64,000 nt of DNA from Nitrospirota bacterium. GTDB taxonomy: Bacteria > Nitrospirota > Thermodesulfovibrionia > Thermodesulfovibrionales > Dissulfurispiraceae. Below the pieces are notes generated by a model that had not been told where the DNA came from, did not search any database, and worked only from the letters and a program-made list of their open reading frames with translations. This document shows, piece after piece, positions 41,386-58,410 of the stretch. The stretch lies in assembly GCA_040754455.1 (NCBI GenBank), contig JBFMCP010000011.1, forward strand, positions 11,463-75,462. The letters run 5' to 3'. The stretch's first letter is position 1; each line of letters starts with the position of its first letter. A program made the position numbers and the translations under genes.

Positions 41386-42162
41386 TTATTGATTTTGTTG
41401 GGGGTATTTGGCTTCTTCCCAGAGCGCGTCCATCTCCTCCAGGGTCATGTCCGAGAGATTTCTCCCGGATTCGGCAGCTTTTATCTCGATATATCGGAAA
41501 CGGGAAATGAATTTACTGATCGTTTTCCTGAGTGCGTCTTCCGGATTGACGCCTACGAAGCGGGCGATATTGACGAGAGAGAAAAAGACGTCACCGAGTT
41601 CATCCTCGATCCGGGCCTGATCTTTGCTTTCAAGGGCTTTCCTGAACTCTGCGAGTTCCTCGTCAAGCTTTCCGAGTACATCCTCAACCCGTTTCCAGTC
41701 GAACCCTACACGTGCCGCCCTCGATTGGATCCGGTGCGCCTTGAGGAGTGAGGGAAGCTCCTTTGGAACACCCTCAAGGATGGACTCCCTGCCCTTCCCC
41801 TCTTCCCGCTTGCGTTCCTCCCATTGCTTCAGCACCTGTTCAGGGGTCTCGAATTTCGCGGTGCCGAAGACATGCGGATGCCGCCCGATCATTTTCGTGC
41901 TGATAGTGTTGATGACATCATCCATATCGAACTCCCCCTGCTCCTTGGCAAGCTGGGCATGGAAGATGATTTGAAAGAGCAGGTCGCCGAGCTCCTCTTT
42001 TATCTTTGAAGGGGCCTTTTCATCGATCGCCTCGATCACCTCATAGGTCTCCTCGACGAGAAAGGGCTTCAGCGACTCCCGCGTCTGCTCCTTGTCCCAG
42101 GGGCAGCCGTTCTCGGCGCGCAGGGCAGCCATAATGTCGAGCAATTTTTGAAAATTATCCAT
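41386..42162 (-). CDS. mazG: Nucleoside triphosphate pyrophosphohydrolase MazG
   Basis: LR...GCPWD.EQT..SL...EETYEV, EELGDLL.Q, RHPHVF, GFDW, ELGD.FF. Confidence 0.95.
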   Translation of the reverse strand: MDNFQKLLDIMAALRAENGCPWDKEQTRESLKPFLVEETYEVIEAIDEKAPSKIKEELGDLLFQIIFHAQLAKEQGEFDMDDVINTISTKMIGRHPHVFGTAKFETPEQVLKQWEERKREEGKGRESILEGVPKELPSLLKAHRIQSRAARVGFDWKRVEDVLGKLDEELAEFRKALESKDQARIEDELGDVFFSLVNIARFVGVNPEDALRKTISKFISRFRYIEIKAAESGRNLSDMTLEEMDALWEEAKYPQQNQ

Positions 42163-42303
42163 AAAAATAAATTCTAAATTCTAAGCACGAAGTCCTAAGC
42201 AAACCTTTACATTCAAATAACCCGAACAGTTTCGAATTTTGAGCATTCGAATTTGTTTCGAATTTAGGATTGAGGATTTTTCAGCTTTGTGTCCTTTGTG
42301 GTT
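42163..42303. repeat. Palindromic heptamer repeat element
   Basis: AAATTCT AAATTCT AAGCACG AAGTCCT AAGC ... TCGAATT TTGAGCA TTCGAATT ... TCGAATT TAGGATT. Confidence 0.7.
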
Positions 42304-42309
42304 CAGAAG

Positions 42310-43188
42310 TTATTTCGTTAAAATATCCACGATCTTCCGGTATCTGGCCACGGTCTTCTGCACGATCTCATCGGGGAGCACCGGACCCGGATAGGTTTTG
42401 TCCCAGTCAAGGGTAAGAAGGTAGTCCCTTACGAGTTGCTTGTCAAAGCTGTCCTGTCCCTTGCCGGGCTGGTAGTCCTTTATCGACCAGAACCGCGATG
42501 AATCGGGGGTGAGGAGCTCATCGATCAGGATCAACCTGTTTTCATACAATCCGAATTCCATCTTCGTATCGGCGATGATGATGCCTTTCTTCTCCGCAAT
42601 CTCTCTGCCCCTTTTGTACACTTTGAGACTCACCTCTTTGAGTTGTTCCGCAAGGGCAGGATCAACGAGCTTTTTCATCTCATCGAAACTGATATTGACG
42701 TCGTGTCCCTCTTCCGCTTTCGTGCTCGGCGTAAAGATAGGCTCATCGAGCCGGGAAGATTCCACGAGACCTCCGGGAAGCTTGATCCCGCCGACAGTCC
42801 CTCTTTCTTTGTACTCCTTCCATCCGGAGCCCGAGAGATATCCGCGCACAATGCACTCGACAGGCATCGGCGTTGCCTTTTTCACCAGCATGCTCCTGCC
42901 TTCGAGCACACTCTTATGTTTCTGGAGCACGGAGGGATAATCTTTCACCTCAGTCGCTACAATATGGTTTTCGATAATATCCTTCATCTGGTCGAACCAA
43001 TAGAGGGATATGCGGGTCAGCATCGTTCCTTTATCGGGAATGCCGTTGGGCAGCACTACATCAAAGGCCGAAACCCTGTCGGTAGCGACAATGAGGAGAT
43101 AGTTGTCCACTTCATAGACGTCCCTCACCTTGCCGCGCCTGACCAGCTTCACCTCATCGAAATCCGTTTTCATGACTACGTCAGCCAT
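42310..43188 (-). CDS. purC: SAICAR synthetase
   Basis: [65 protein letters not shown]. Confidence 0.95.
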
Positions 43189-43250: not shown

Positions 43251-45920
43251 TCATAAACGGGCGGGAGCAGCACTACGCCGCCGTATCCACTTCTCGATCT
43301 CAACCGCAAAAAATACCACCGTGGAAAGCGCGAGGATCGACAGCAGCTCGTGCGCCGTAAGCGGTACCGTCTTGAATATAGAATTAAAGAACGGCACATA
43401 GATGACCGCCATCTGGAGAAGAAAGGTAACGAGCACCGCCCCCAGCATTGCCTTGATTTTTTCTGGAGGCATTCTGAAGAACGATTGCTGCTCAGAGGTA
43501 AGGGCCAGTGCAGTGCCGAGTTCAGCTACACAGATGAAGGTGAAGACCATGGTCTGCCACTTTGCATGCAAGCCGCCGTTCATCGTGCCCGCCTGGAGCA
43601 TGATGCCGATGCCTGCCAGGAGGAGACCCGTCCAGAGGACGCTCACCATCATCCGAGCACCAATGATCCCGGCCTTGGGATCACGGGGCGGTCTGCTCAT
43701 CACATTCGGCTCCGCAGGCCCCGCAGCAAAGGCGAGGCTCGGCAGGCCGTCGGTAACGAGATTGAGCCAGAGCATATGAATCGGCAGGAGGGGGAGGGGC
43801 AGTCCGAAGAACGGGGCAAAGAAGATCAGCATGATCTCACCAGAATTGGTTGAAAGTATATAGCGGATCATCTTCTCGATTCCGTCGAATATCCTTCTCC
43901 CCTCCTTAACCGCCTTGACGATGGTGGCGAAATTATCGTCCAGGAGAACCATGTGGGCCGCCTGCTTCGCCACATCGGTGCCGGTGATGCCCATCGCAAT
44001 ACCGATATCTGCGCGTTTCAGGGCAGGGGTGTCGTTGACACCATCCCCCGTCATTGCGACAAATTGTCCTTTGTCCTGGAGCGCTTTGACGATCTTCAGC
44101 TTCTGTTCGGGGGCAACCCGGGCATACGCCCTGATATGTTCAACCCGTTCTTCAAACTCCTCGAGAGGCAACTTTTCAAGCTCCCTTCCTGTCATCACTC
44201 CCCGCTCACCCTCAAGTATCCCGAGCCTTTTAGCGATAGCCCGTGCGGTAAGGGGATGGTCGCCCGTAATCATGACCGGCTTGATTCCCGCACTCTTGCA
44301 CAGGGCAACCGCCTCCTTTGCTTCCTCCCGGGGCGGATCCATCATGCCGACAAGTCCGAGCATCGTGAGGCCTGTCTCGACCTGCTCGGGCGACAGGTTT
44401 TCAGGAATCCTGTCCCATGTCCTCATGGTGATACATAAAATTCTCAGCCCATCCGCAGCCATTCGCTCATTGATTTTAAAAACAGCTTGTTCATTGACTG
44501 CTTTTGTTCCCTGCACGGTAAGCACATCCTCCGATTTTTCGGCAAGCGACTCGACCGCACCTTTGGTGAACGATACAAAACCGCCACCCCATTTATGAAA
44601 GGTGGTCATTGCCTTTCGTTCAGAATCAAAGGGAACCTCAGCCATCCTCGGAAAGTCATTCTCGAGGGCTTTCTTATCAAAGCCAAGCTCTTTGGCAATA
44701 TTATAGAGTGCGATTTCGGTCGGATCGCCGATCATCGTTCCATCGGCGCCCATCTGCGCGTCATTGCTCAACGCAAGGGCAATCATCATCAGCTCGGAAG
44801 CGCGGAGGTCCGGAAGCGCAGAAGGGACGGGCTTCCTTAATGTGACCTCCGCACTTCCACGCTTCAGATCCTCCGCTCTCGCTACTTTCTCATCAACATA
44901 GACCTCTTCAACGGTCATTTTATTCAGGGTAAGCGTCCCTGTCTTATCGGAGCAGATGTAGGTGACCGAGCCGAGCGTCTCTACTGCCGGGAGCTTTCTC
45001 ACCAATACATTCTGCCTGACCATTTTCCTTGCCCCGAGAGCAAGCGATATGGTCACCACCGCTGGCAGTGCCTCCGGAATCGCTGCAACAACAAGGGTGA
45101 GGGCGGTCATGAACATTCCCAGAACCGGCTCCCCCCTCAGTATGCCGAAACCAAAGACAATGGCGCAGATGGCGATCACCGACAGCGCAAGTTTTCTCCC
45201 GAATGCGGCCAGTCTCTTTTGAAGCGGTGTTTTGACCTCCTCCTCTTCCTGGAGCATGGTGGCGATCTTACCGAGCTCCGTGTCCATTCCGGTGGCGACC
45301 ACAATGCCACTCCCTCTCCCATACGATACCGTCGTGCCCTTGTATGCCATATTTTTTCTATCACCGAGGGAAAGCGCTGCGTCCTCCAATGCTTCCGTGT
45401 GCTTTTCTACAGGAACCGACTCCCCCGTAAGCGCTGCCTCTTCAACTTTCAACTGTGCCGCTTCCGCAAGCCGCATGTCAGCAGGCACGATTTTCCCGGC
45501 CTCGAGCAGCACCATATCACCGGGCACAATCTCCGAGGCCTGAATATCCGCAGGCACTCCGCTCCTGATGACCGTCGCCGTCGGCGCCGCCATCTTCTCA
45601 AGAGCTGCCATCGCCTTTTCTGCCCTGTACTCCTGGATAAATCCTATAATCGCGTTGAGAACAATGATCACGATGATGGCAATAGTATCCGAGAGCTCGC
45701 CGATAAAGCCCGATATTCCCGCGGCAGCGACGAGCACGAGGATCATGAGATCCTTGAATTGATCGAGAAACATCATGAAGGGGGTCTTTTTCTTCTTCTC
45801 TTTCAGCTTATTGGGGCCGTAATCAGCCAGGCGCTTCCGCGCCTCTTCAGGGGAAATCCCCTGAAGGGATGTATTCAGTTCGGCGACAACTGCATCGATT
45901 CTCTTCTGGTGCCAGCGCAT
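43251..45920 (-). CDS. P-type ATPase, P2A (Ca2+/Mn2+-type; YoaB/PacL-like)
   Basis: LTGES, TM4 [33 protein letters not shown]5 STNSGE, TM6 [10 protein letters not shown]. Confidence 0.93.
44795..44880. repeat. Palindromic octamer repeat inserted in frame in the P-type ATPase
   Basis: GGAAGCGC GGAGGTCC GGAAGCGC AGAAG ... GACCTCC GCACTTCC ACGCTTCA GATCCTCC GC; encodes roughly [27 protein letters not shown]. Confidence 0.7.
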
Positions 45921-45956
45921 GAATGCTCCTTCTAAAGCCAAGATTAAAGGCTCAGG

Positions 45957-46226
45957 TCAGTCGAACAATTCTTCGAAGAACGATTTCATTTTGTGTTTCT
46001 TATGTCCGTAGTGTTTATCTTTGTATTCGTAATGTTTATGCTTATTCCTGGACTCCTCATGGGGTACATGTCGATGTCCCTCATCATACACTGAAGCGGA
46101 TCTTTCTATAATTTTATCAAGCTCGCCGCGATCTAACCACACCCCGCGGCACTGCGGGCAATAATCGATCTCGATTCCCTGCCGCTCGGATATCGCCAGG
46201 GCGATAGTACATGCCGGACATTTCAT
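45957..46226 (-). CDS. zf-TFIIB-type Zn-ribbon protein with His/Lys-rich tail
   Basis: MKCPAC...IEIDYCPQCRGVWLDRGELDKII...KKHKMKSFFEELFD. Confidence 0.88.
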   Translation of the reverse strand: MKCPACTIALAISERQGIEIDYCPQCRGVWLDRGELDKIIERSASVYDEGHRHVPHEESRNKHKHYEYKDKHYGHKKHKMKSFFEELFD

Positions 46227-46254
46227 ACCGGATACCTCCCTTCCAATGGCCTGG

Positions 46255-46554
46255 CTACTTCTTGAATACGCTGAAAAGCTTATCGAGCCCCGTCTTTTCG
46301 AGCCGGGCTACTGCCTCGAGCTCTCCAGCATCGAGCCAGATCCCCTCGCACTCCGAGCATTTATCGACCTTTATGTCTTTATAGTCAATCTCTATCAGCT
46401 CCATCCCGCACTTGGGGCAGCGCATAAAATGGAGCTCTCTGAGCCGCTTCTTCTCCTCATCGGCGAGCCTCCTATGCTTCTCCTCCTCGATCTTCTTTAA
46501 TCTCTCATACTCCTTCCTTGCTACATACTCCTCTTCTCTTTCGCTTGGTCTCAT
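46255..46554 (-). CDS. zf-TFIIB-type Zn-ribbon protein with N-terminal coiled coil
   Basis: EEEY...HFMRCPKCG.EL......VDKCSECEGIWLDAGELE. ATGA overlap with the upstream gene and AAGGAGG RBS. Confidence 0.85.
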   Translation of the reverse strand: MRPSEREEEYVARKEYERLKKIEEEKHRRLADEEKKRLRELHFMRCPKCGMELIEIDYKDIKVDKCSECEGIWLDAGELEAVARLEKTGLDKLFSVFKK

Positions 46555-46763
46555 TGCATATACCTCCTTTTTCCGTTCTGCAGCTTGGTTTTCACTGCCC
46601 TTAATAAACCTCTCGCCCAACTGAACTCGGTGGAGAGGATCCCCAGGCCGAGCGGTATCACGACAACGGCAGGGCCGGGCAGAATAATCATTGCAATGCC
46701 TCCCGCCAGCACGGCAAACCCGACGACGGCCACCAGCACCCTCTTCATCGATCGCACAACCAT
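46551..46763 (-). CDS. PGPGW-domain small membrane protein
   Basis: VVGF.VL..GIAMIILPGPA.VVIPLGL.ILSTEF.WAR. Confidence 0.85.
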   Translation of the reverse strand: MVVRSMKRVLVAVVGFAVLAGGIAMIILPGPAVVVIPLGLGILSTEFSWARGLLRAVKTKLQNGKRRYMQ

Positions 46764-46770
46764 GATGCGA

Positions 46771-48234
46771 TTATCCCAGGAACTTTCTTATATGCGCTGC
46801 CTCAATGAGCATCCGCTGCATATTCGAATGGTCATTCTCCCTGAGGGCCTTTATGATCCGTGAAGTGATCTTCTTGTACTCAGGGAGTATGCTGTATTCA
46901 CCCCAGTCGAGCCGGAGCGATTTCCTCACCTCATCCGGAAGAAGTGCAAGCACCTCCTCGTTAAAAAAGGACATTGCCGTCTTCATATCGAACATGAAGT
47001 TCACATGCATATCCTTCATGCATGCTCTATCCTCAGGGGTAAGAACATTAAGCCCGATGATCTCCGGCGGCAGGCCGATGGAATAGCAGGCGGCACAGAA
47101 GCTTATAACTCTCGGGAGCGAGGTGGTGCCGATGCTGCGGGCGTATCCGAAAAGACCGACATGGAGCTTTCGCATCCTTCGCCTCGGAACAAAACCTGCC
47201 ATATGGTTGATAACGGGAGCAAGATATTCTATAAGTCTCCGGTATTCCACCGACACCTTTTCTATGATTTCGATGCACTTCCCCTCGTCCAGGTCATATC
47301 CCCTCATCATCCGGGTTCCTCTCAGCCTCTCTATGGCGGAGGTGACCGACAAAACGGAGTAGTCGTACTTGAAAGCAGACTGGATGGTAAATGTCTGGAC
47401 ATCGGGATACTCTTCCAGCATCATGTCGACGGTGTCGGGGGTAAGATGTCCTCTGAACGGCGCAGAACCGGCGCCGAGTATGGGGTATATTGCAACGCCG
47501 GTCTCTTCGGAGAGCTTCCTCAGGCGTTGAAGGGCGATTTTATTGCAGAGGATTGCGCTTACCATGCCGTAGTTCATAGCGGGATCGGACCTGGCGATAA
47601 AAACCCGCTGGTGCTTGATATCCTTCCCCTTCAAATATTCGCCTATAATGCGGTGGGCCTCGAGCATATGCACCTTATCCTCGAAAAGCGGGATCACATT
47701 GATGGTTCCAGGCTGGAACTCTCCGATCCACTCGGAGATGGTGATGTCCCCCGGGTAAAAGGGCTTATGCCCCTTTCCCACCACAAAATCCTTGTAGTAA
47801 TAGTAGACCCTGTTCAGACTCTCAGGGGATATCGTCATCGGCAGAATGACTTCGAAAATGGGAGGGATGTCCTGTCCATAAAACAGCCGCGCAGCATCGC
47901 AGGACCGGGGTATGCTCTCAAGTGTCTCTATGAGGACTTTGGCTTCCTGCCGTTCCGCATCGGGGTTGGGGACCCGCAACGTGAGGAAGATATCCTCCCC
48001 CAACCTCTTCTGTTTGAAAAAGTGCTCATATTTGGTGAGGAGCTTGCGCACGACGAAATCATCGACTTCCTTGCCCTCGCAATCCCACATCTGCTCATCG
48101 ATACCGAGGTGCGAATAGGCGTAATACGCTTCCTGTATCTCGTCATCTCCCGACATGTCCTGACTCTCGGCAAAGAAGGGCAGGACGACATTGTCCGGGT
48201 GCTGTGTCGACATTACCCTCGGAATCCTCATCAT
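46771..48234 (-). CDS. ppcA: Archaeal-type phosphoenolpyruvate carboxylase
   Basis: IPRVMSTQHPDN, EQMWDCEGK, LTLRVPNP, FEVILPMT, VIPLFED, RVFIARSDPAMNYG, GSAPFRG, TIQSAFKYD, RKLHVGLFGYAR, LPR.ISFC.A.YSIGLPPE. Confidence 0.92.
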   Translation of the reverse strand: MMRIPRVMSTQHPDNVVLPFFAESQDMSGDDEIQEAYYAYSHLGIDEQMWDCEGKEVDDFVVRKLLTKYEHFFKQKRLGEDIFLTLRVPNPDAERQEAKVLIETLESIPRSCDAARLFYGQDIPPIFEVILPMTISPESLNRVYYYYKDFVVGKGHKPFYPGDITISEWIGEFQPGTINVIPLFEDKVHMLEAHRIIGEYLKGKDIKHQRVFIARSDPAMNYGMVSAILCNKIALQRLRKLSEETGVAIYPILGAGSAPFRGHLTPDTVDMMLEEYPDVQTFTIQSAFKYDYSVLSVTSAIERLRGTRMMRGYDLDEGKCIEIIEKVSVEYRRLIEYLAPVINHMAGFVPRRRMRKLHVGLFGYARSIGTTSLPRVISFCAACYSIGLPPEIIGLNVLTPEDRACMKDMHVNFMFDMKTAMSFFNEEVLALLPDEVRKSLRLDWGEYSILPEYKKITSRIIKALRENDHSNMQRMLIEAAHIRKFLG

Positions 48235-48866
48235 TGTGCTATCCTCTCAAACCTATCGGTGGAGGGATTGTAGGAGCACATACTTCCCTCTCCTATGTCA
48301 TAGTACCAGCCGTGGAGGTGCAGCGTTCCCTCATTCAATGACTGCTCAACAAAGGGATAGGTCTGTATATTATTCAATTGCAGCAGGATATTCTCCTCCT
48401 CGGTAATCCGTTGGCGGGATTCCTCGGAAGAGATCTTATCCGGGTAAAATTTAGTGACGATGAGCTTTACCGGGAATGCAAGTTTCAGCCACTCCTTCAG
48501 GTGCGGCATATGCTCAAAATCCCCTTCAGAATGGTAAAGCGCCTGCATGGCGCCGCAATTCGAATGTCCGCATACGATGATATCGGCCACCTTCAGGCCG
48601 AGTACGGCAAACTCAATAGCTGCGGCAACGCTGTTTTTGTCCTTTATGGCATCGTAGGGGGGAACGATATTTCCTACATTTCTCACAATGAAAAGCTCAC
48701 CCGGCCTACTTTGCGTCACGAGGTTGGGGTCCACCCGCGAATCCGCACAGGTGATAAAGAGCACTTTTGGAGATTGATGCTCGGAAAGGCGCCTGAAAAG
48801 ATCCCTCTCCCTCTTAAAATACGACTCCTGAAATGTGTGAATACCCCTATACAGTTTTTCGACCAT
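48231..48866 (-). CDS. Beta-class carbonic anhydrase
   Basis: Q.PKVLFITCADSRV, GELFIVRNVGN, IIVCGHSNCGAM, LHGWYYDI. ATGA overlap with ppcA. Confidence 0.94.
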   Translation of the reverse strand: MVEKLYRGIHTFQESYFKRERDLFRRLSEHQSPKVLFITCADSRVDPNLVTQSRPGELFIVRNVGNIVPPYDAIKDKNSVAAAIEFAVLGLKVADIIVCGHSNCGAMQALYHSEGDFEHMPHLKEWLKLAFPVKLIVTKFYPDKISSEESRQRITEEENILLQLNNIQTYPFVEQSLNEGTLHLHGWYYDIGEGSMCSYNPSTDRFERIAQ

Positions 48867-48882
48867 ACTATCGCTCCAATAT

Positions 48883-49003
48883 AAAAAGACCTTTACCACT
48901 TTTAAAGTAAGAGCTAAGAAGTGAGAACTCAAGAAGTAAAAGATAAAGGCAAATACTATTACTTCTCACTTCCTACTTCTTACTTTTCAGGTGGTAAAGG
49001 TCT
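48883..49003 (-). terminator. Riboswitch-1 expression-platform terminator (long repeat-filled loop)
   Basis: AGACCTTTACCAC ... GTGGTAAAGGTCT-TTTT; the 5' arm is the aptamer P1 3' strand. Confidence 0.8.
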
Positions 49004-49090
49004 CGCTTGTTAGACTGTCCTAACCAGCGGTACCGGGTCAAATGTACGACCGTATTGACGATAGCCGCTGCTACAGCTACTCCCCTTTAC
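48994..49090 (-). ncRNA. yybP-ykoY (Mn2+) riboswitch, copy 1 (upstream of CA-ppcA-...-P-type ATPase)
   Basis: GUAAAGGGGAGUAGC...UCGUCAAUACGG...CCGG...GCGAGACCUUUAC with P1 GUAAAGG/CCUUUAC; matches the hallmark L1 and L3 motifs. Confidence 0.9.
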
Positions 49091-49099
49091 TATTGTTCT

Positions 49100-49128
49100 A
49101 CCTTACCCCAAATGGGAAGATATGTCAA
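49100..49128 (-). promoter_or_regulatory. Putative sigma-70 promoter for riboswitch 1
   Basis: TTGACA-N17-TAAGGT ending about 9 nt before the aptamer 5' end. Confidence 0.6.
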
Positions 49129-49198
49129 CTATCATTTCCCGTAAGGAAGAACTCTCTTCACCTCGCCCTCTCCTCAAGCGCCACCATACGTGAATGTC

Positions 49199-51538
49199 CT
49201 ACGATAAATAGGCCACCTCGGGAAGCAGATAGGAGACAACATCCCTGTAGGATATGACTCCTACGACCTTCTCATCTTCGGTTACCGGAAGGTGCCTGAT
49301 CTTTTTATCCGACATGAGCGTAACGGCAATGCCGAGATCGGAAGAGGCATCGAGCGTTACCGGCGTAGGCGTCATGACATTCCTCATTACCTCGCTGTTC
49401 AACTGAACGCCTTTGACCAGGCAATGCATGATGTCCCGCTCGGTGAATATGCCGATTAGTTCTCCTTCCGCATCAGCGACGAGCAGCGAGCCGATATTCT
49501 TGCCGTCCATGATAGTCACGGCGTCCGCGACAATGCAGTCGGGGCTGCAGGTCTCCACGATCATCGGCTTTGACTGTACCACATCCTTCAGCGTCATTCG
49601 TGTGCTCCGCTCAAGCACCTCGATTCTCTCCGAGGGAATCCCGAACTGCTCCTGCAGCTTCACCAGGCTCTGTTTTCTTACTTTTACCGCCTCCACCGGG
49701 CAGGCCTCGTAGCATGCCCTGCACTTGACGCAGTCGTCCCGATCGATGAAGTATTTATCTCTCGTTTCTTTTACCGCACCAAAGGCGCATGCCTCCTTGC
49801 AGAGCCCACACCGTATGCATTCCGTCTGGTTAATAATGTATACGCCCATCCCCGAGCATACCTTTGCGCGGCAGTAGTGGTCGTACACATGCTCCTCGAC
49901 CTCCTCTCTGAAGTACTTGATGACCGAGAGTATGGGATTGGGAGCGCTCTTGCCGAGGCCGCACAGGGAGCCTCTCTGTATGTTCTTACCGAGCTGTATG
50001 AGCTTCTCGATATCGCCGGGCTTTCCTTTTCCTGTAGTAATATTCTCCAGGATCTGAAGCATCTGGTACGTGCCGATCCTGCAGGTCGGGCACTTGCCGC
50101 ATGACTCCGACTGGGTAAAAGAAAGGAAGTACTTTGCCACGTCCACCATGCAGGTGTCTTCGTCCATAACGACCATTCCGCCCGAGCCCATCATTGACCC
50201 GACCTTTATAAGAGAATCGAAATCGACGGGCATGTCGAGATGGCTCGCGGGGATACATCCTCCGGAAGGGCCGCCCGTCTGAACGGCCTTGAATGCTTTG
50301 CCGCCGAGGGTCCCTCCTCCTATGTCAAAGATGATTTCTCGTAGCGTCGTCCCCATCGGGACTTCGATAAGCCCTGTGTTCTTTACCTTGCCGGTGAGTG
50401 CAAAGACCTTCGTTCCCGGAGCGCTCTCGGTACCGATGCTCCTGAACCATTCGGCGCCCTTTTCAATAATGGGGGGCACACAGGCAAAGGTCTCAATGTT
50501 ATTCATATTGCTCGGATAGCCCCAGACTCCTCCTCCCACCTCGGAAGGAAGCGGCGGCCTCGTCCTCGGAAATCCTCTTTCACCCTCAAGAGATGCCACC
50601 AGCGCGGATGCTTCACCGCAGACAAAAGCTCCGGCGCCTTCACGTATCTTGAGGAGGAAGTTGAAACCGGTCCCAAGGATATTATTTCCAAGCAGGCCGA
50701 TATCTTCCGCCTGCTTTATGGCATGCCTGAGGTTCTTCACTGCAAGAGGATACTCATGCCGCACATAGATGAAGCCGTACTGTGCTCCGATCGCATAGGC
50801 GCAGAGAAGCATGCCCTCAAAGAGACTGTGAGGATCGCCTTCCATGATCGACCGATCCATGAACGCACCGGGATCGCCCTCATCCCCGTTCGCAATAACG
50901 AATTTCACGGGACTGTTGGAGCTCCTGGTATGCCGCCACTTCTGGCCCGCGGGAAAGCCGGCCCCGCCTCTTCCTCTGAGGTGCGCCCGATCAACCTCCT
51001 GCAGCACCTCATCCGGCGTCATTGAAGAGAGCGCCTTCTCGAGTGCGGCATATCCACCCACGGCAATATAGTGGTAGATATTTTGCGGATCGATCTTATC
51101 GTTATTTCTCAGCGCAATCCTCAGCTGTTTTTTGTAGAAGGGGATCGATTCCATTTCCGGAATAGGCTCGCTCATGATGTCCTCTCGATACAGCGCCTGC
51201 CTGAAATAGTTTCCCTTTCCGGATAAAGAGTTAATAAGGGGTTCCGCATGCTCCGGTTTTACCTTTTGATAAAACGTATTCTGTGGGTCAATCCGCATGA
51301 CAGGCCCCTTTTGGCACATCCCCTGGCACCCTGTTTTTATGATCTCCGGGGCAAGGCCTTTCTTCCGGCCCTCTTCCTTGAGGGCAGCGACGACGTTATG
51401 CGAGCCCATAGCTGCACAGGCCGTACCGCAGCAGACATGTATTCTCTCCCGGTCTTTCTGAAAAATTTCTCCAGAAAGCCTTTCTCTAAGCTTTTTCAGA
51501 TCATCAATACTCGCCAGCCTCTTCGTTAACATCTCCAT
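49199..51538 (-). CDS. NuoF/HydB-like NADH-binding FMN Fe-S protein with C-terminal CBS-domain pair
   Basis: Thioredoxin-like [2Fe-2S] (VCCGTAC...GCQGMC), LRGRGGAGFP, NGDEGDPGAFMDR, GAGAFVCGEAS, GGPSGG, ESCGKCPTCR, 2x CxxCxxCxxxC, then CBS (NIGSLLV...GIFTERD...IRHLPV...GVISYRD). Start after GGAGG. Confidence 0.9.
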   Translation of the reverse strand: MEMLTKRLASIDDLKKLRERLSGEIFQKDRERIHVCCGTACAAMGSHNVVAALKEEGRKKGLAPEIIKTGCQGMCQKGPVMRIDPQNTFYQKVKPEHAEPLINSLSGKGNYFRQALYREDIMSEPIPEMESIPFYKKQLRIALRNNDKIDPQNIYHYIAVGGYAALEKALSSMTPDEVLQEVDRAHLRGRGGAGFPAGQKWRHTRSSNSPVKFVIANGDEGDPGAFMDRSIMEGDPHSLFEGMLLCAYAIGAQYGFIYVRHEYPLAVKNLRHAIKQAEDIGLLGNNILGTGFNFLLKIREGAGAFVCGEASALVASLEGERGFPRTRPPLPSEVGGGVWGYPSNMNNIETFACVPPIIEKGAEWFRSIGTESAPGTKVFALTGKVKNTGLIEVPMGTTLREIIFDIGGGTLGGKAFKAVQTGGPSGGCIPASHLDMPVDFDSLIKVGSMMGSGGMVVMDEDTCMVDVAKYFLSFTQSESCGKCPTCRIGTYQMLQILENITTGKGKPGDIEKLIQLGKNIQRGSLCGLGKSAPNPILSVIKYFREEVEEHVYDHYCRAKVCSGMGVYIINQTECIRCGLCKEACAFGAVKETRDKYFIDRDDCVKCRACYEACPVEAVKVRKQSLVKLQEQFGIPSERIEVLERSTRMTLKDVVQSKPMIVETCSPDCIVADAVTIMDGKNIGSLLVADAEGELIGIFTERDIMHCLVKGVQLNSEVMRNVMTPTPVTLDASSDLGIAVTLMSDKKIRHLPVTEDEKVVGVISYRDVVSYLLPEVAYLS

Positions 51539-51637
51539 AGCTACCTCCCACATAATGTATTTCGCTCGTCTTCTCATGGGATGGATGAGGTCTCTTGCCT
51601 TCCCTTTGATAAAGCCTCTCTCTCCATCTCTCTATAT

Positions 51638-51740
51638 AAAAAGACCTTTACCATTTGAAACTAAGAAGTAGGAAGTGAGAAGTTAGATTTTACGCTTACT
51701 TCCCAGTCCTTGCTTCTTACTTTTCAGGCGGTAAAGGTCT
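51638..51740 (-). terminator. Riboswitch-2 expression-platform terminator (long repeat-filled loop)
   Basis: AGACCTTTACC ... GGTAAAGGTCT-TTTT. Confidence 0.8.
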
Positions 51741-51827
51741 CGCTTCTTAGATTGCCCTAACCAGCGGTACCGGGTCGAATGTACGACCGTAGTGACGATA
51801 GCCGCTGCTACAGCTACTCCCCTTTAC
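51731..51827 (-). ncRNA. yybP-ykoY (Mn2+) riboswitch, copy 2 (upstream of the NuoF-CBS gene)
   Basis: 97 nt, differing from copy 1 at 5 positions by manual alignment; same L1, L3 and P1 motifs. Confidence 0.9.
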
Positions 51828-52064
51828 AAACGCACAAACAGCAGACCAATATTCCTCTGCAGCAGTACTTTTACAAGCAACGCGATTATTGCTGGTGCAT
51901 CCTGACCGGGGCCTTATGCATCGCAGGGCTTACAGCATATGCTGCAGAAGGTTGCTGCTTAGTTCTACAGTACACGAATTCTTAAAGCGTTTTCCCTGAC
52001 CTTATCACGTCATAATAAATCCTCATAGAGATTAAAAACGTTCTACTTATGGTATTCTAGAAAT

Positions 52065-53006
52065 GTGGATATAAAGCTGAAACTGTTTTGCACTGTTGCC
52101 GAAACGAAGAGTTTCTCAAAGGCCTCCCGGATCGTTCATCTCACCCAGCCTGCCGTGAGCCTGCAGATCCAATCGCTTGAGGAATTTTTCGAGACGAAAC
52201 TCTTCGACCGATCAGAGGGAATGGTAAGCCTTACCCCTGCGGGGAAAATACTGTATAAGCACGCAAAACACCTGCTCGAACATTATGCTGAAATCGAGAA
52301 AGAGATCGGAACGCTCACCGGCATGATAAAAGGGGGTGTCGCGGTAGGCGCGAGCACCACGCTGGGGAACCATGTACTGCCCCGCGTCATCATTGATTTC
52401 AAGAAGAAACACCCCAAGATCAAATTCAGCATGCTCGTAGGCAACACAAAGCGCATTGAGGATCTCCTAATATCAGGGCTCATTGATATCGGTCTGGTTG
52501 AGGGCGAAACATCCAGGCCCACCTTGCGTATAGAGCCGATCGTGCCGGACGAGCTGATCTTGATCGTCCCCCCTGCTCACCCGTGGGCCCGGAGAAAAGT
52601 AATTCCTGTGCTCGATGTCACCAGAGAACCCATTATTCTGAGAGAAGAGGGATCAGGCACGAGGTATCAAATAGAGGAATATCTGAAATCGCACGGTATC
52701 AGCACCGGTGATATGCATGTCGCGCTGACCCTCGGGAGCACGGAATCGATAAAAGAGGCCGTTGAGGCCGGAATAGGGGTCTCGATAGTCTCAAAATGGG
52801 CGGTCAAGAAAGAGGTGGAAGACGGAAGATTGAGGACCGTCGCGCTCAGGGAAGGGAAAATCCTCAGAAACCTCTCTCTCATCACGCCCCTGAAGGCACG
52901 GCTTACGCCAGCGGTCGAGGAGTTCTCCCTTTACGTCAAATCCTACCCGTATGAGCACCTTTCTGCCGAGCCCATGCCGGCGAACCACCTCTCCCGCCAG
53001 CGCTAG
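52065..53006 (+). CDS. LysR-family transcriptional regulator (CysL/CmpR-like)
   Basis: LKLFCTVAE.KSFSKAS...LTQPAVS.QI..LE....LFDR.....LTPAG, GASTT.G, REEGSGTR, STESIK.AV.AG.GVS.VS. GTG start. Confidence 0.92.
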   Translation: MDIKLKLFCTVAETKSFSKASRIVHLTQPAVSLQIQSLEEFFETKLFDRSEGMVSLTPAGKILYKHAKHLLEHYAEIEKEIGTLTGMIKGGVAVGASTTLGNHVLPRVIIDFKKKHPKIKFSMLVGNTKRIEDLLISGLIDIGLVEGETSRPTLRIEPIVPDELILIVPPAHPWARRKVIPVLDVTREPIILREEGSGTRYQIEEYLKSHGISTGDMHVALTLGSTESIKEAVEAGIGVSIVSKWAVKKEVEDGRLRTVALREGKILRNLSLITPLKARLTPAVEEFSLYVKSYPYEHLSAEPMPANHLSRQR

Positions 53007-55111
53007 TCGATCCGCTCCACAGGCTCCTGGCTCTTGGGCTGCACCTTTTCGATCACGAACAGAAGCTGCTTTTCCTGAACGGTATCATTGAGCTTTACGC
53101 AGACCTCGACAATCTGCCCGTCGAAGGGAGCGACGATCGCATTCTCCATCTTCATTGCTTCGAGGTTGGCGATCTCCTCGCCCTTGTGGACAATATCCCC
53201 CGCCTTGATGGCACCACGTTCGGGATTCCCGATTCTCCAGATATTGCCGTTGATCGGCGCGCCGATATCGTTCGGCCCTTTGGCCATCCTGATCTCTACT
53301 CTCTTGGCCCTTGGCGTCTCGACCGTATACACCCTCGTTTTGTTGTTCACCTTCATGACGACGTGGATCAATCCATCATGCTCGGCGCCTAACGATACGA
53401 GCTCTATGCAATAGGGCTTCCCAGAAAGCTCGAATTCAACCTTGTCGCCCACCCTCTTCAGCCCCTCTCTCCAGACATTGGTCGGCAGCAGGAGCGGAGC
53501 CTCTCCATATTTCTCTCTGAAGCCGATCATCTCGAGGGCATCCTTGGGATGCATGAGGTACAGAATGAACTCCTCTTCCGTCGGCATCCGGCCGATATGC
53601 TCGGACAAGGTCTGTCTGAGCTTTTCGAGATCGTCATCTCCTACCGAATCAAGGGGGGAGACATCTTTTCGTTCCTTGATCTTTGTGTGCCATTCATCGC
53701 CGAAGGTGCTTTGATAGACCCATTCCGCAGGCCAGCCCATGGGGAGCTTTCCGTAGCCGCCGAGCAGGAGGTTCTTGAAGTCGCCCGGTGCATTTCTAAA
53801 GAGCAGCAACAGTTCTTCCTGCTCGTTTTTCTCCATAGCTTCGAACTGCTGCCCCTTCTCTTCGACGAACTTCGTGAGCAATCCGATTACATGCCGCACT
53901 CCTGCAGCGCCCTTCTCTTTATCGTAGCGGTTGATAATGCCGTTGCAAGTGACCCAGGTAATCTGAGAGCCGGGTGTTACATCAAAATATTTGATGATCC
54001 GGTTGTACAGTGACATCATCCTCAATATAGCAGGCATCAGGTGGAGAAACCCGCCGTTTGCCGCCTGTTCGAAGGAGCTGGGGAAAGCGCCGCCGGGCAT
54101 TCTGTGCTCGGTGACGGTATGGTCATAGCCTTTGAACGGCGATTCGGCCCACTCATAATGGCCTATCCAATCCCGCACCCTCTGCACTGCAGCCTCTGCG
54201 TGCGCTCTGCTGATGTTCACCTTGATGCCGGACTCCTCAAGATATGCCTGCAGACCGAGGATGGGGGCCTGGCCGTAGAATCTGGTGAGCGAATCCTCCT
54301 GCACATCGAGGATCTTGGCTCCTGCCTGCGCGGCAGCCAGGAGCGCGGGCATGGCAAGCCCGTCGGTGGAGTGTCGGTGGTACTGCACTTCGAGATCGGG
54401 ATATTTCTGTTTTATCGCATCGATAAGGCTCCTGATGCGCTGGGGGCTGCCGACACCGGCCATGTCCTTTATGCAAAGGATGATCTCGTCAACACCGCTA
54501 CAGAGATCGACCATCTCTCCGGCAACCTTGAGGTAGTACTCATTCGTTGTCCAGTCCGCCTGGGTGAAGGAGATCGCGGGCTGAAAGAGCCTGCCCCGCC
54601 GCATCACCACTTCGGCAACTGCACGCATATTCCTCACATCATTAAGGAACGAAAAGCATCGCCATACATCAATGTCCACCCTCGAAACGACATACTCGAT
54701 GACGTTCTTCGGATACGGCCGGTAGCCAAACAGGTTGGTCTCCCTGATAAGCGTCTGCAGGAGCACGTTCGGCATCAACTCGCGGAGCAGGTCGACCTCC
54801 TCGAAGGGGGTCTCCCTCCTGTTCATCACGCCGACATGCCAGCGCGCGCCGCCGTGGCACTCTGCACTGAAGAGCCCCATTTCATTATAGAAGGGAGCGA
54901 GCGTCTTCAGGTCGTAAATCCGGTGGCGGTTTTTATAGTCCGACTGTCCTGCATCACGCATGCCGGTAGACGTCAGAAAAACGCCGGGCGTGGAACGCAC
55001 GGTCTTCACGATATCACGCGGCGACATACCGGGCCTGATGAGGACAGATCCCGTATCGGTGGTATCGGGCATCTGGCTTCCGTTTTCTGTCTTTCGGATA
55101 TTTACATCCAT
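53003..55111 (-). CDS. Biotin-dependent 2-oxoacid carboxylase, carboxyltransferase plus biotin-carrier subunit (PycB/OadA-like, divergent)
   Basis: RDAGQS, LLQTLIR..N.FGY.PYP, IKDMAG, HRH, H.MPGG, VTPGSQ; C-terminal EAMKM biotinylation motif. Confidence 0.85.
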   Translation of the reverse strand: MDVNIRKTENGSQMPDTTDTGSVLIRPGMSPRDIVKTVRSTPGVFLTSTGMRDAGQSDYKNRHRIYDLKTLAPFYNEMGLFSAECHGGARWHVGVMNRRETPFEEVDLLRELMPNVLLQTLIRETNLFGYRPYPKNVIEYVVSRVDIDVWRCFSFLNDVRNMRAVAEVVMRRGRLFQPAISFTQADWTTNEYYLKVAGEMVDLCSGVDEIILCIKDMAGVGSPQRIRSLIDAIKQKYPDLEVQYHRHSTDGLAMPALLAAAQAGAKILDVQEDSLTRFYGQAPILGLQAYLEESGIKVNISRAHAEAAVQRVRDWIGHYEWAESPFKGYDHTVTEHRMPGGAFPSSFEQAANGGFLHLMPAILRMMSLYNRIIKYFDVTPGSQITWVTCNGIINRYDKEKGAAGVRHVIGLLTKFVEEKGQQFEAMEKNEQEELLLLFRNAPGDFKNLLLGGYGKLPMGWPAEWVYQSTFGDEWHTKIKERKDVSPLDSVGDDDLEKLRQTLSEHIGRMPTEEEFILYLMHPKDALEMIGFREKYGEAPLLLPTNVWREGLKRVGDKVEFELSGKPYCIELVSLGAEHDGLIHVVMKVNNKTRVYTVETPRAKRVEIRMAKGPNDIGAPINGNIWRIGNPERGAIKAGDIVHKGEEIANLEAMKMENAIVAPFDGQIVEVCVKLNDTVQEKQLLFVIEKVQPKSQEPVERID

Positions 55112-56559
55112 TTCTGCGGCCCCAGCGCGGAGATTTCCGCTACATATTTTGCGATCTTCAGCGCCTCATCCTCGCTGCTCTCTTCCTTGAACATAGAGAT
55201 GAGCTCGTCCATGTGCTCTTCTATGAAGCGGGTCGAAAACTCCCCTGCAATAAAGGCAGGATGTCTGATGATGCTCAGCAGCAGCGGTGCAAGCGTCTTT
55301 ATTCCCTCAACCCTGAGATTTCTGCCCAGGGCGCGGTCCATCGTCCTCACCGCATCTTCCCTATCAGCCCCTGCGGTCATCAGCAGCATAAAGAGCGAAT
55401 CATAATAAGGAGGAATATCCGCCCCTTCGTAGACGCCTGAGGCTATCCTCACGCCGGGGCCATGTGGTATCTGGAGGCGGGTAATCGTGCCGAACGAGGG
55501 GCTGAAGGTCTTGGGATCCTCTGCATTCAACCTGACCTCAAGCGACCAGCGGTTCGGAACGATCTCATCCTGGGTAAACGGCAATCTCTTTCCCGAAGCG
55601 ACGTCGATCATGATGCCGACGATATCGAGGCCGGTAATGAGCTCCGTCGTGCCATGCTCGACCTGCAGGCGGGTATTCACTTCGAGGAAATAGAATTTCT
55701 TTTTCGGTGCATCGAAAATAAACTCCACCGTACCGGCCGTCGTATAGCCAATCTCCCTCATCAGGCGGACAGCCGTAAAGCATATTTCCTGGCGGAGATT
55801 GTTGTCGAGCGAGGGCGACGGCGCCTCCTCGATGATTTTCTGATTGCGCCGTTGGAGTGTGCACTCCCTTTCAAAGAGATGGACCACATTGCCGTGCTCA
55901 TCGGCGACGATCTGCACCTCGATATGCCTGCCACGCTCAATGTATTTTTCGACGAGAATCTTCTCGTCACCGAAGGCCTTCTTCGCCTCGGAGCGGGCCT
56001 GTGCAAAGGCCTGCGTGATATCCGCCTCGTTTTCGACCTTTACCATTCCCTTGCCGCCGCCCCCTGCAGCAGCCTTTATCATAATGGGGAAATCCACCTT
56101 CTCCTGCTTCATCCATTTCTTGATCTGCTCAGGTTCGGTGACATCACTGATACCTGGAATCGTCGGCACATTGGCCCTTTTCGCAATGACCTTTGCCTCT
56201 ATTTTATCTCCCATCATCCTGATCACTTCAGGAGAAGGGCCGATCCAGATCAGCCCGGCATCGATCACCCGTTGCGCGAAATCCTCGTTCTCCGCAAGGA
56301 ACCCCCATCCCGGGTGCACTGCGTTTGATTTGCTCTTCAGCGCAGCATCGATGATCCGGTCCATATTGAGGTATGACTCGGCGGGAGGCGCTTCACCGAT
56401 ATGGACGGCGGAGTCGGCCATGAAGACATGGTGGGCAAGCCGGTCGGGAGTGCTGTAGACTGCAGTGGTGGGAATCCTCCGGTCCCGGCAGGTGTGCATG
56501 ATCCTGACGGCGGGAACACCCCTGTTCGCGACTAATACTTTCTCAATTTTTCTTTCCAT
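55102..56559 (-). CDS. Biotin carboxylase subunit (PycA/AccC-like)
   Basis: KVLVANRG, HPGWGFLAEN, IKAAAGGGGKGM, RHIEVQ, ERECTLQRRNQKIIEEAPS, FLEVNTRLQVEH, YYDS. Confidence 0.92.
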   Translation of the reverse strand: MERKIEKVLVANRGVPAVRIMHTCRDRRIPTTAVYSTPDRLAHHVFMADSAVHIGEAPPAESYLNMDRIIDAALKSKSNAVHPGWGFLAENEDFAQRVIDAGLIWIGPSPEVIRMMGDKIEAKVIAKRANVPTIPGISDVTEPEQIKKWMKQEKVDFPIMIKAAAGGGGKGMVKVENEADITQAFAQARSEAKKAFGDEKILVEKYIERGRHIEVQIVADEHGNVVHLFERECTLQRRNQKIIEEAPSPSLDNNLRQEICFTAVRLMREIGYTTAGTVEFIFDAPKKKFYFLEVNTRLQVEHGTTELITGLDIVGIMIDVASGKRLPFTQDEIVPNRWSLEVRLNAEDPKTFSPSFGTITRLQIPHGPGVRIASGVYEGADIPPYYDSLFMLLMTAGADREDAVRTMDRALGRNLRVEGIKTLAPLLLSIIRHPAFIAGEFSTRFIEEHMDELISMFKEESSEDEALKIAKYVAEISALGPQKWM

Positions 56560-56565
56560 ACGGCG

Positions 56566-57057
56566 TTACTTCCCTTTGAGTTTTGCTGATTTTTCGAGGA
56601 GCTTTTCCCTCGTTTTTTCCCTGGAAGCTTCCAGCCGTTGTGCTATCTCAGGGTATTTTATTGAAAGGATGGAGCATGCCAGGTAGGCGGCATTCTTTGC
56701 GCCATCGATTGCTACCGTAGCAACGGGAATTCCGGGCGGCATCTGCACGGTGGAATACAATGCATCGACACCGTTGAGCGCACCTGATTTAAGCGGAACT
56801 CCAATGACAGGCAGGGTTGTATGCGAGGCGATTACACCTGCAAGATGAGCTGCCATACCTGCGCCGGCAATCAATACCTCAATGCCGCGATCACGGGCAG
56901 TCTTCGCATAATCCGCCGTCTTTTCCGGCAAGCGGTGCGCAGAGCTAATATCGATCTCATAGGGGATGTCCAGCTCCGCCAGGACCTCGGCAGCCTTTTC
57001 CATGACGGGGAGATCACTATCGCTCCCCATGAGAATTCCCACTAATGGCTTTTTCAT
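56566..57057 (-). CDS. purE: N5-CAIR mutase / AIR carboxylase
   Basis: [49 protein letters not shown]. Confidence 0.95.
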
Positions 57058-57240
57058 TGAACTCCTCCTTGCTGCCCATTCCAGGGGTTTTCAGCCCTTT
57101 CAAAGACGCCGTATTTTTAAGTCAGGGATTTTACCAGAATTGAACCGTTTATAGCTATAAAAAAATCGAAAAGGAATCATTATAATCACCTAATGAATCC
57201 CTACCATGCTGCTGAACAGTACCGCTTCCGCGCAGAATAC

Positions 57241-57280
57241 AAAAAAGGCTGAAGATGTGATCGATCATCTTCAGCCTTTT
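57241..57280 (-). terminator. Intrinsic terminator after htpX
   Basis: AAAAGGCTGAAGATG...CATCTTCAGCCTTTT inverted repeat flanked by A/T runs. Confidence 0.8.
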
Positions 57281-57300
57281 CCCTTTCATGGTTTATAGTC

Positions 57301-58149
57301 TTATCTTTTGTACATCATTGCCTCGAGCCGGGCTATTCTCTCCTCCATCGGCGGATGGGTGCTGAAGAGCTTCACCAGCGCACCGCCCGAAAGGGGATTA
57401 ACAATAAACATGTGCGACGTTGCCGGGTTGGCATCCATGGGGATCCTCTGCGATGCCATATGCAGTTTCTTGAGCGCATTGGCGAGCGACAGAGGGTTGC
57501 CCGCAATCCTGGCACCCCCGGCATCGGCCCCGTATTCGCGCGAACGCGATATCGCCATCTGCACGAGCATCGCTGCGATCGGCCCGACGATCATCATGAC
57601 GATAGCGGCGATGGGATTGCCTCCTTCGTCATCGTCATGCCTTGCGCCGCCGAAGATCATCGCCCACTGCGCCATCTGCGCGAGATAGCTGATCGCACCG
57701 GCAATGGCAGCCGCCACCGTGCTCACCAGAATATCGCGGTGCTTGATATGGGCTAGCTCATGCGCCAGTACTCCCTCGAGCTCCTCCCGTGAAAGAATCC
57801 TCATAATACCGGATGTTACTGCAACGGCACCATGCTGGGGATTCCGTCCGGTCGCGAAGGCATTCGGCTGGTCCTCTTCAATAATATACACTCGGGGCAT
57901 CGGAAGCTCTGCGCGGTGGGCCAGTCTTCTCACCATTCCGAACAATTCGGGGGCCTCTGATTCGCTAACCTCTTTTGCCCTGTACATTCTCAGCACGATC
58001 TTGTCGCTGAACCAATAGGTGATAAAGTTCATACCGAAGGCCATGATAAGCGCAAAGGTCATTCCAGATTTGCCGCCGATCACACCCCCGATCGCTACCA
58101 GCATCAACGTCAAAGTAACCATCAGCACCATTGTCTTCAATCCGTTCAT
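57301..58149 (-). CDS. htpX: Membrane zinc metalloprotease HtpX
   Basis: [29 protein letters not shown] (HExxH), [22 protein letters not shown]. Confidence 0.95.
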
Positions 58150-58226
58150 TTTTCGAACCTCCTCAATCCTATGAGCAGTTGGTTATGTTCATAAGAGCTT
58201 ATATAGTTTAAGTATACAATTTCCAT

Positions 58227-58284
58227 AAAAAAACCTTTACCTCGATCAATACTTATCATATAAATATTCATCGTGGTAAAGGTC
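58227..58284 (-). terminator. Riboswitch-3 expression-platform terminator
   Basis: ACCTTTACCACGAT ... ATCGAGGTAAAGGT-TTTTTT. Confidence 0.8.
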
Positions 58285-58371
58285 TCGCCTGTTAGTTGCG
58301 TTACTAACCAGTAGTACCGGGCCCCATCGGCCGTGCTGACGACAGCTACTGACTCAGCTACTCCCCTCTAC
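58276..58371 (-). ncRNA. yybP-ykoY (Mn2+) riboswitch, copy 3 (upstream of htpX)
   Basis: GUAGAGGGGAGUAGC...GUCGUCAGCACGG...CCGG...GGCGAGACCUUUAC; stems diverge from copies 1 and 2 but retain pairing. Confidence 0.88.
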
Positions 58372-58380
58372 GTATATTTC

Positions 58381-58410
58381 AATGTAACTGATAGGGGGAC
58401 CGACTGTCAA
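58381..58410 (-). promoter_or_regulatory. Putative sigma-70 promoter for riboswitch 3 / htpX
   Basis: TTGACA-N18-TACATT ending about 9 nt before the aptamer. Confidence 0.6.

Follow-up and report, generated by a model that had tools for sequence, protein, structure and literature searches.

Compact yybP-ykoY riboswitches and a probable carbonic anhydrase–carboxylase–cation pump operon in a Nitrospirota bacterium

Background

Riboswitches of the yybP-ykoY class are among the commonest known, and both their non-exporter cargo and their relation to alkaline pH are standing questions. The Escherichia coli alx leader works mostly through translational control and precedes a gene for a TerC exporter; Streptococcus pneumoniae mgtA and Lactococcus lactis yoaB each place a terminator-type ON switch before a PII-type Mn2+/Ca2+ ATPase. 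Three RNAs of this class lie on the minus strand of a 64,000-nucleotide stretch, the window, from the 3.27-Mb assembly of a Nitrospirota bacterium of the class Thermodesulfovibrionia (GCA_040754455.1, contig JBFMCP010000011.1, positions 11,463 to 75,462). Our preferred reading, to which we give a probability of about 0.68, is that all three are alx-like ON switches: element 1 serves an operon for carbonic anhydrase (CA), phosphoenolpyruvate carboxylase (PEPC), and a cation pump; element 3 serves htpX; and element 2 is an incidental duplicate.

The published aptamers vary in architecture. Helices P2 and P4 are optional, and the metal site is formed by L1 residues G8-G9-A10 and L3 residues C40-A41 (Martin et al. 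2019, PMC6649816); a 2024 review names N7 of A41 as the Mn2+ determinant (PMC11672702). The mgtA switch lacks P4 and that of yoaB is four-way, whereas the elements described here lack P2. Here, moreover, genes for CA, PEPC, a PGPGW protein, and two zf-TFIIB proteins precede the pump, unlike the arrangement at mgtA and yoaB. The alx leader also differs, since here a terminator sits on the P1 strand and the cargo is other than TerC.

The RegPrecise yybP-ykoY regulon (Sun et al. 2013, PMC3766115, supplement 5) includes htpX, atcL, COG2119, COG1971, and COG0530 among its 18 gene families. It names no CA, PEPC, or NuoF-like gene, several of its entries being bare locus tags. Our literature searches brought up general reviews only and found no published link of the class to CA or PEPC, a provisional result with key primary gene tables outside its coverage; those around Nitrospirota, a Ca2+ riboswitch, and variants returned no paper. 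Earlier work already covers the class of RNA, the terminator logic, the presence of several copies in one genome, the pump, and htpX. What looks new is the recurrence of a β-CA, sometimes with PEPC, behind a yybP-ykoY switch in this bacterial class.

Three compact aptamers

The aptamers occupy positions 48994..49090 (element 1), 51731..51827 (element 2), and 58276..58371 (element 3), a span of 9.4 kb, just where the original prediction had placed them. The core motif used for the window and assembly scans, GGGGAGTAGC-N8-36-TCGTCANNNCG, has three matches in the window, whereas 100 shuffles gave 0.00 on average, and it has none elsewhere in the assembly. Element 1 adopts a three-way form with GGAGUA/GAGA in L1 and UCAAUAC in L3; the L3 sequence is UCACUAC in its duplicate, element 2, and UCAGCAC in element 3.

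Against the class assignment stand the Rfam results. No match in the window reached the gathering threshold, and the RF00080 scores of elements 1, 2, and 3 (14.4, 15.9, and 10.4 bits, computed in this genome only) fall far below the 45-bit cut-off. This was the check proposed at the outset, and its outcome is divided: no element passes, yet three of the five weak matches in the genome at E≤10 are the elements themselves, at ranks 1, 2, and 4. The model is evidently strict, because the same search reached the cut-off in only two of 14 control genomes.

A covariance model, R1, was built from an alignment of 60 chosen elements, all from this bacterial class. Among 35 sources it picks up the alx leader of E. 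coli at 44.1 bits (E 8e-9) and, more weakly, the mntP leader at 21.3 bits (E 0.01); element 1 scores 108.8 bits, by construction. The alx leader aligns over the whole model, likewise without P2, and its L3 loop reads UCAUUAC where element 1 has UCAAUAC. The alignment supports P1, P3 (with an L3 loop of 7 nucleotides), and P4, whereas P2 is replaced by a linker of 5 nucleotides. Paired cells amount to 95.7%, and 14 of the 26 pairs vary on both sides. Pairing and covariation exceed those of every one of the 500 shuffles and of every slid control (the shuffle test being inflated by relatedness), and the covarying helices are P1, P3.1, P3.2, and P4. All three elements keep the G-G-A of the 5' side of L1, the AGA of its 3' side, and the C-A of L3, including the equivalent of A41. 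With an intact metal site and covarying stems, the three RNAs are, as judged from sequence, P2-less yybP-ykoY riboswitches of a compact, alx-like form. The class named by the original prediction is thereby upheld.

The same pattern was found in 93 of the 301 genomes of the bacterial class that were scanned; the reversed pattern, used as a control, was found in none. The Rfam cut-off misses this form, as scored in the present genome, and regulon catalogues therefore probably contain too few examples of it.

A terminator on the P1 strand

In each element the 3' strand of P1 (GACCTTTAC) also serves as the 5' arm of a U-tailed hairpin, as had been proposed. Element 1 is followed by a long intrinsic terminator (48883..49002, minus strand, −52 kcal/mol) that shares this strand; element 2 by a homologous one (51638..51739, minus, −41 kcal/mol); and element 3 by a shorter one (58227..58284, minus, −26 kcal/mol). 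The terminator state is favored over the P1-formed state by 14.5–16 kcal/mol, and the terminator likewise uses the P1 3' strand in those relatives whose folds were listed. Since the terminator takes the P1 strand and is the more stable, transcription is predicted to be OFF by default and ON with ligand, which supports, as a prediction, the ON logic suggested earlier. The ligand is likely Mn2+, perhaps also Ca2+, by analogy with the family, from which the ON direction is taken too. In this scheme, Mn2+-bound aptamer would hold the P1 strand that the terminator needs, and transcription would continue.

Elements 1 and 3 are each preceded by a TTGACA sequence and element 2 by none, in agreement with the claim that two of the three would have one. 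The predicted σ70 promoter of element 1 (49100..49128, minus strand; TTGACA-17-TAAGGT, with TTGACA at 49128-49123) has a weak −10 box (TAAGGT) and falls below the threshold of a consensus scanner; both boxes are kept in a sister species, G094, though the spacer has diverged. The only promoter that the scanner reports is that of element 3 (58381..58410, minus; TTGACA-18-TACATT, with TTGACA at 58410-58405), which scores 10/12 and is kept in the sister species.

The middle of the element 1 and element 2 terminators (48895-48990 and 51650-51725) resembles a dispersed palindromic repeat, found also on contigs C3, C4, C6, C12, and C37. A similar long hairpin lies at window positions 42160-42300.

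Genes behind the three elements

Element 1 likely controls a CA–PEPC–cation-pump operon, to judge from the layout of the genes, all of which lie on the minus strand with gaps of −4 to 39 nucleotides. The first encodes a β-CA (48231..48866; Pfam Pro_CA, E 1e-49) with intact CADSR and HSNCG motifs. Overlapping its stop by 4 nucleotides is ppcA, for an archaeal-type PEPC (46771..48234; TIGR02751, 605 bits against a cut-off of 146), of which no second copy was found in the assembly. Then come genes for a small PGPGW membrane protein (46551..46763; PF09656), for two zf-TFIIB zinc-ribbon proteins (46255..46554 and 45957..46226; PF13453), and for a type-IIA P-type ATPase of the Ca2+/Mn2+ type (43251..45917), which carries the motifs IPEALP, DKTGT, STNSGE, NLVTDG, and VAELG. 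The best Protein Data Bank matches of the pump are the Listeria Ca2+-ATPase Lmo0841 (E 6e-186) and human SPCA1 (E 1e-160), and it has acidic residues at two positions that are Ala and Arg in Lmo0841. By SERCA numbering, these would suggest two ion sites. A purC-like gene (42310..43188, minus; named from its sequence) begins 62 nucleotides beyond the ATPase gene; read-through into it is possible, and it is likely a neighbor only.

Element 3 likely controls a single gene. Its htpX (57301..58149, minus; NF002826, 423 bits against a cut-off of 369) encodes a zinc membrane protease, is predicted to be monocistronic, and is followed by an intrinsic terminator (57241..57280, minus) that is present in the sister species too. 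Because this terminator stands directly after htpX, the purE, pycA, and pycB genes for bicarbonate- or CO2-using enzymes (53003..57057, minus) would lie outside the reach of element 3. The idea that element 3 also governs them was discarded in the case of this genome; in some relatives, no terminator separates htpX from the purE gene after it. Homologs of htpX behind a switch also occur in Selenomonas, Abditibacterium, Chthonomonas, and the Fimbriimonas class.

The original prediction thus identified the first genes correctly: β-CA followed by archaeal-type PEPC for element 1, an NADH flavoprotein for element 2, and a membrane protease, HtpX, for element 3. Its description of the regulon as a whole as atypical is not borne out. 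The element 1 unit ends in a type-IIA P-type ATPase, which is textbook cargo, and htpX, which Sun et al. (2013, PMC3766115) had already listed, stands in the published regulon beside a P-type ATPase gene (atcL), COG2119, and COG0530.

Element 2, a recent duplicate

Elements 1 and 2 are identical at 92 of 97 nucleotides, whereas each matches the orthologous element of the sister species at 82–83 of 97. In the sister species lysR and nuoF are arranged alike, and the short spacer between them holds no switch at the orthologous place. Given the higher mutual identity and this absence, the duplication postdates the split of the two species.

The gene behind element 2 encodes an orphan NuoF/HydB-like flavoprotein (49199..51538, minus), intact, with 2Fe-2S, FMN, 4Fe-4S, and two CBS domains. 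It is 75% identical to a paralog on contig C2, in an operon of nuoE, nuoF-CBS, a small Fe-S gene, and a nuoG-like gene (L389:5554-11087) that lies beside CO dehydrogenase and is widespread in the class. Such an operon surrounds 28 of the 29 best other nuoF-CBS loci, the exception being that of the sister species, and in all 29 the upstream flank examined is free of a switch. A nuoF gene is first behind a switch in one of 110 elements in a genome census (described below) and in none of 78 from metagenomes. The redox arm that had been proposed is therefore unsupported: a young duplication, seen in this genome only, has landed before an orphan paralog. A conserved redox arm was rejected, and the control of nuoF by element 2 is likely incidental. 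The stretch from nuoF to element 1 shows no evident terminator with a U-tail.

Divergent from element 2 lies a gene for a LysR regulator (52065..53006, plus strand; NF040786, 279 bits against a cut-off of 250), and the intergenic region contains an inverted motif, TTAT-N6-ATAA (52002..52015), kept in the sister species and a candidate LysR site. Since element 2 has no TTGACA and sits behind the region divergent from lysR, double control of nuoF by LysR and metal is possible. In other genera of the family (L045, L047, L049-L052) lysR points away from pycAB, and in this genus it points away from nuoF-CA-ppcA; to go by this gene order, it is as if a carbon-fixation regulator had switched its target.

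Cargo across the class

The census took 98 regions from 88 relatives and the window. Two of 116 pattern matches were dropped as spurious, leaving 114 genuine elements in 89 genomes; four of these lacked a readable downstream gene, so first genes are known for 110. Four of the 93 pattern-positive genomes were left out, their match lying at a contig end. A unit was defined heuristically as genes on the same strand with gaps of at most 300 nucleotides, and one mis-called PEPC gene (L058) was assigned by hand. Named Nitrospirota records (Thermodesulfovibrionales, Thermodesulfovibrionia) show the same motif and the same downstream genes.

The commonest first genes are those for HtpX (55, a few truncated), zf-TFIIB (15), the ATPase (14), and β-CA (13); rarer ones are PGPGW/SPFH (4), UPF0182 (3), TerC (2), and four singletons, nuoF among them. 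The ATPase is inside 51 of the 110 units. CA is inside 19, from 18 genomes and five families, and as first gene directly behind the terminator it spans four families and two orders. Its position varies: CA first, htpX-CA, htpX-purE-CA, and htpX-CA-PEPC-purE. PEPC is inside three census units, and a fourth, found with the model in another family, brings the total to four genomes. In metagenomes, which overlap the genome set and are not an independent sample, 12 of the 78 non-duplicate elements have CA as their first gene, and one contig reads switch-htpX-CA-PEPC-purE-PGPGW-ATPase.

Several facts count against the link between switch and CA. CA is absent from 91 of the 110 switch-led units, and this CA is present in only 40 of the 301 genomes. 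Of 36 CA loci examined, 13 stand first behind a switch, five lie deeper in a unit, and one follows a degenerate switch; the remaining 17 have no switch in the upstream DNA examined. PEPC occurs in 43 of the 301 genomes, and only four of the 30 PEPC loci examined are switch-led. Beyond the class, in the Fimbriimonas class, CA lies behind one of 32 elements read (30 loci, from 68 matches). The relatives are non-independent samples; the operons are drawn from spacing only; and the search patterns demanded the L1 and L3 letters, which makes their conservation in the census partly a matter of construction.

A rival reading is hitchhiking: the switch would serve only the pump and htpX, while CA, PEPC, pyc, purE, and purC would form a bicarbonate-using neighborhood with the export operon set inside it, and shuffling would at times bring CA to the front with no selective tie to Mn2+. 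Ten of the 17 switch-free CA loci adjoin pyc, ppcA, or purE; purE and purC flank switch genes at many loci; and element 2 shows that a copy of the switch can land before new genes. No purK was found over its cut-off in the genome, and without it purE has a reason of its own to adjoin CA. Yet as first gene in 13 of 110 elements, CA stands directly behind the terminator, so its expression would depend on the switch. The other seven switch-free CA loci, and 11 of the 30 PEPC loci, are still near exporter-module genes. We consider hitchhiking unlikely; were it correct, the locus would be an ordinary Mn/Ca export regulon. The CA tree is poorly resolved, with good support for 11 of 35 inner branches, and CAs led by a switch are mixed in it with those that are not, so it gives no number of recruitments.

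Families f3, f6, and f7 have none by pattern; family f5 has none by pattern in 15 genomes, nor by model in six of these. Outside the class, the matches listed bring mostly TerC and ATPase cargo. One Fimbriimonas genome (L209:3995-4798) has a switch followed by a distant β-CA, 27% identical and with a signal-peptide-like N-terminal extension; a general CA link outside the class was rejected, its occurrence there being sporadic.

Ligand and physiological role

A different cue for the aptamers, either Ca2+ or pH acting through folding kinetics, would turn the regulon into a calcium/carbonate or alkali program with no part for Mn2+. The closest solved relative of the pump is a Ca2+-ATPase; Na/Ca exchanger and GDT1 genes belong to the regulon in this class; and the fold resembles the pH-induced alx leader. 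In vitro, moreover, the three-way S. pneumoniae aptamer binds Ca2+ more tightly than Mn2+, although in a Bacillus subtilis reporter the same switch answered Mn2+ and not Ca2+ (PMC6649816). Sherlock and Breaker deem yybP variants with altered metal specificity likely (PMC7266159). The A41 equivalent, the Mn2+ determinant, is present in all three elements, and L3 variants among the 110 elements are not cleanly sorted by first gene, for which reason an L3 ligand signature for each first gene was rejected as well. On balance we regard a non-Mn2+ cue as quite improbable.

With Mn2+ as ligand, why should CA be among the cargo? Plants use the same pair of enzymes, CA and PEPC, in a biochemical pH-stat that yields protons and organic acid under alkalinization. 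That system is controlled at the enzyme level, whereas here an archaeal-type PEPC stands behind a predicted RNA metal sensor. In E. coli, alkaline medium raises both cytoplasmic Mn2+ and alx expression (PMC10197570), which leads us to favor a switch that reports alkali or cation overload indirectly. By the same analogy an alkaline-pH response of the elements is plausible.

A high level of Mn2+ in the cytoplasm would then tell the cell that it is under alkaline or cation-overload stress, and the cell would answer with the pump, proteolysis, and CA plus carboxylase, a proposal that we advance tentatively and at somewhat less than even odds. The cation would be pumped out and damaged membrane proteins cleared; CA would release protons from CO2, and the carboxylase would fix bicarbonate into oxaloacetate. 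Fixing bicarbonate would also limit carbonate precipitation. A point against such a role is that Alx gives no help to E. coli pH homeostasis (PMC10197570; PMC8632737).

The fuller version, in which the Thermodesulfovibrionia switch is an alkali/cation-overload alarm that joins a CA–carboxylase pH-stat and carbonate sink to Ca/Mn export and proteolysis, with an NADH-binding subunit newly wired behind a LysR promoter, seems to us doubtful. If true, it would mean that a riboswitch couples the sensing of metal to the fixation of inorganic carbon. The three-arm program originally mooted survives only in part: the bicarbonate link is recurrent and the protease was known cargo, while redox falls away. 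A recurrent CA, sometimes with PEPC, behind an intact aptamer offers a concrete gene link to the questions of alkali/carbonate stress and Ca2+ sensing.

The cargo might instead be united by zinc. All of HtpX, β-CA, zf-TFIIB, and sometimes FtsH or a second M48 peptidase carry zinc-type motifs or belong to zinc-type families, and they could be re-made, or serve as sinks, under excess Mn2+, a matter of metalation and not of carbon or pH. This would leave unexplained the PEPC that several families have within the unit or next to the pump, and Mn2+ competes weakly for zinc sites. Even with the co-purification of HtpX with the B. subtilis TerC protein MeeF (PMC10550928) in its favor, a zinc explanation appears highly improbable.

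Other observations

At L319:5881-5989 (G252), a switch before CA has G at the A41 position and an L1 one G short, and scores 62 bits; from its sequence it may be either degenerate or a natural specificity variant. A candidate fourth element on contig C6, the one further match of model R1 in the genome (21 bits, E 0.12), lies inside a coding frame and was rejected. The open reading frame at the weak false R1 match, in L391 (minus strand, near the contig end), encodes a protein that looks like type I-C Cas8c. Matches to miRNA and snoRNA families at the E-value threshold were also set aside, being far under their own cut-offs, the miRNA ones on the long terminator hairpins.

At two loci (L085 and L141) a pair of switches encloses a citrate synthase gene, which comes after htpX and its predicted terminator. 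The zf-TFIIB zinc-ribbon proteins, to which RegPrecise gives no entry by name, regularly belong to the switch cargo in two phyla: they are inside 45 of the 110 census units, and theirs is the first gene in most of the Fimbriimonas-class loci read.

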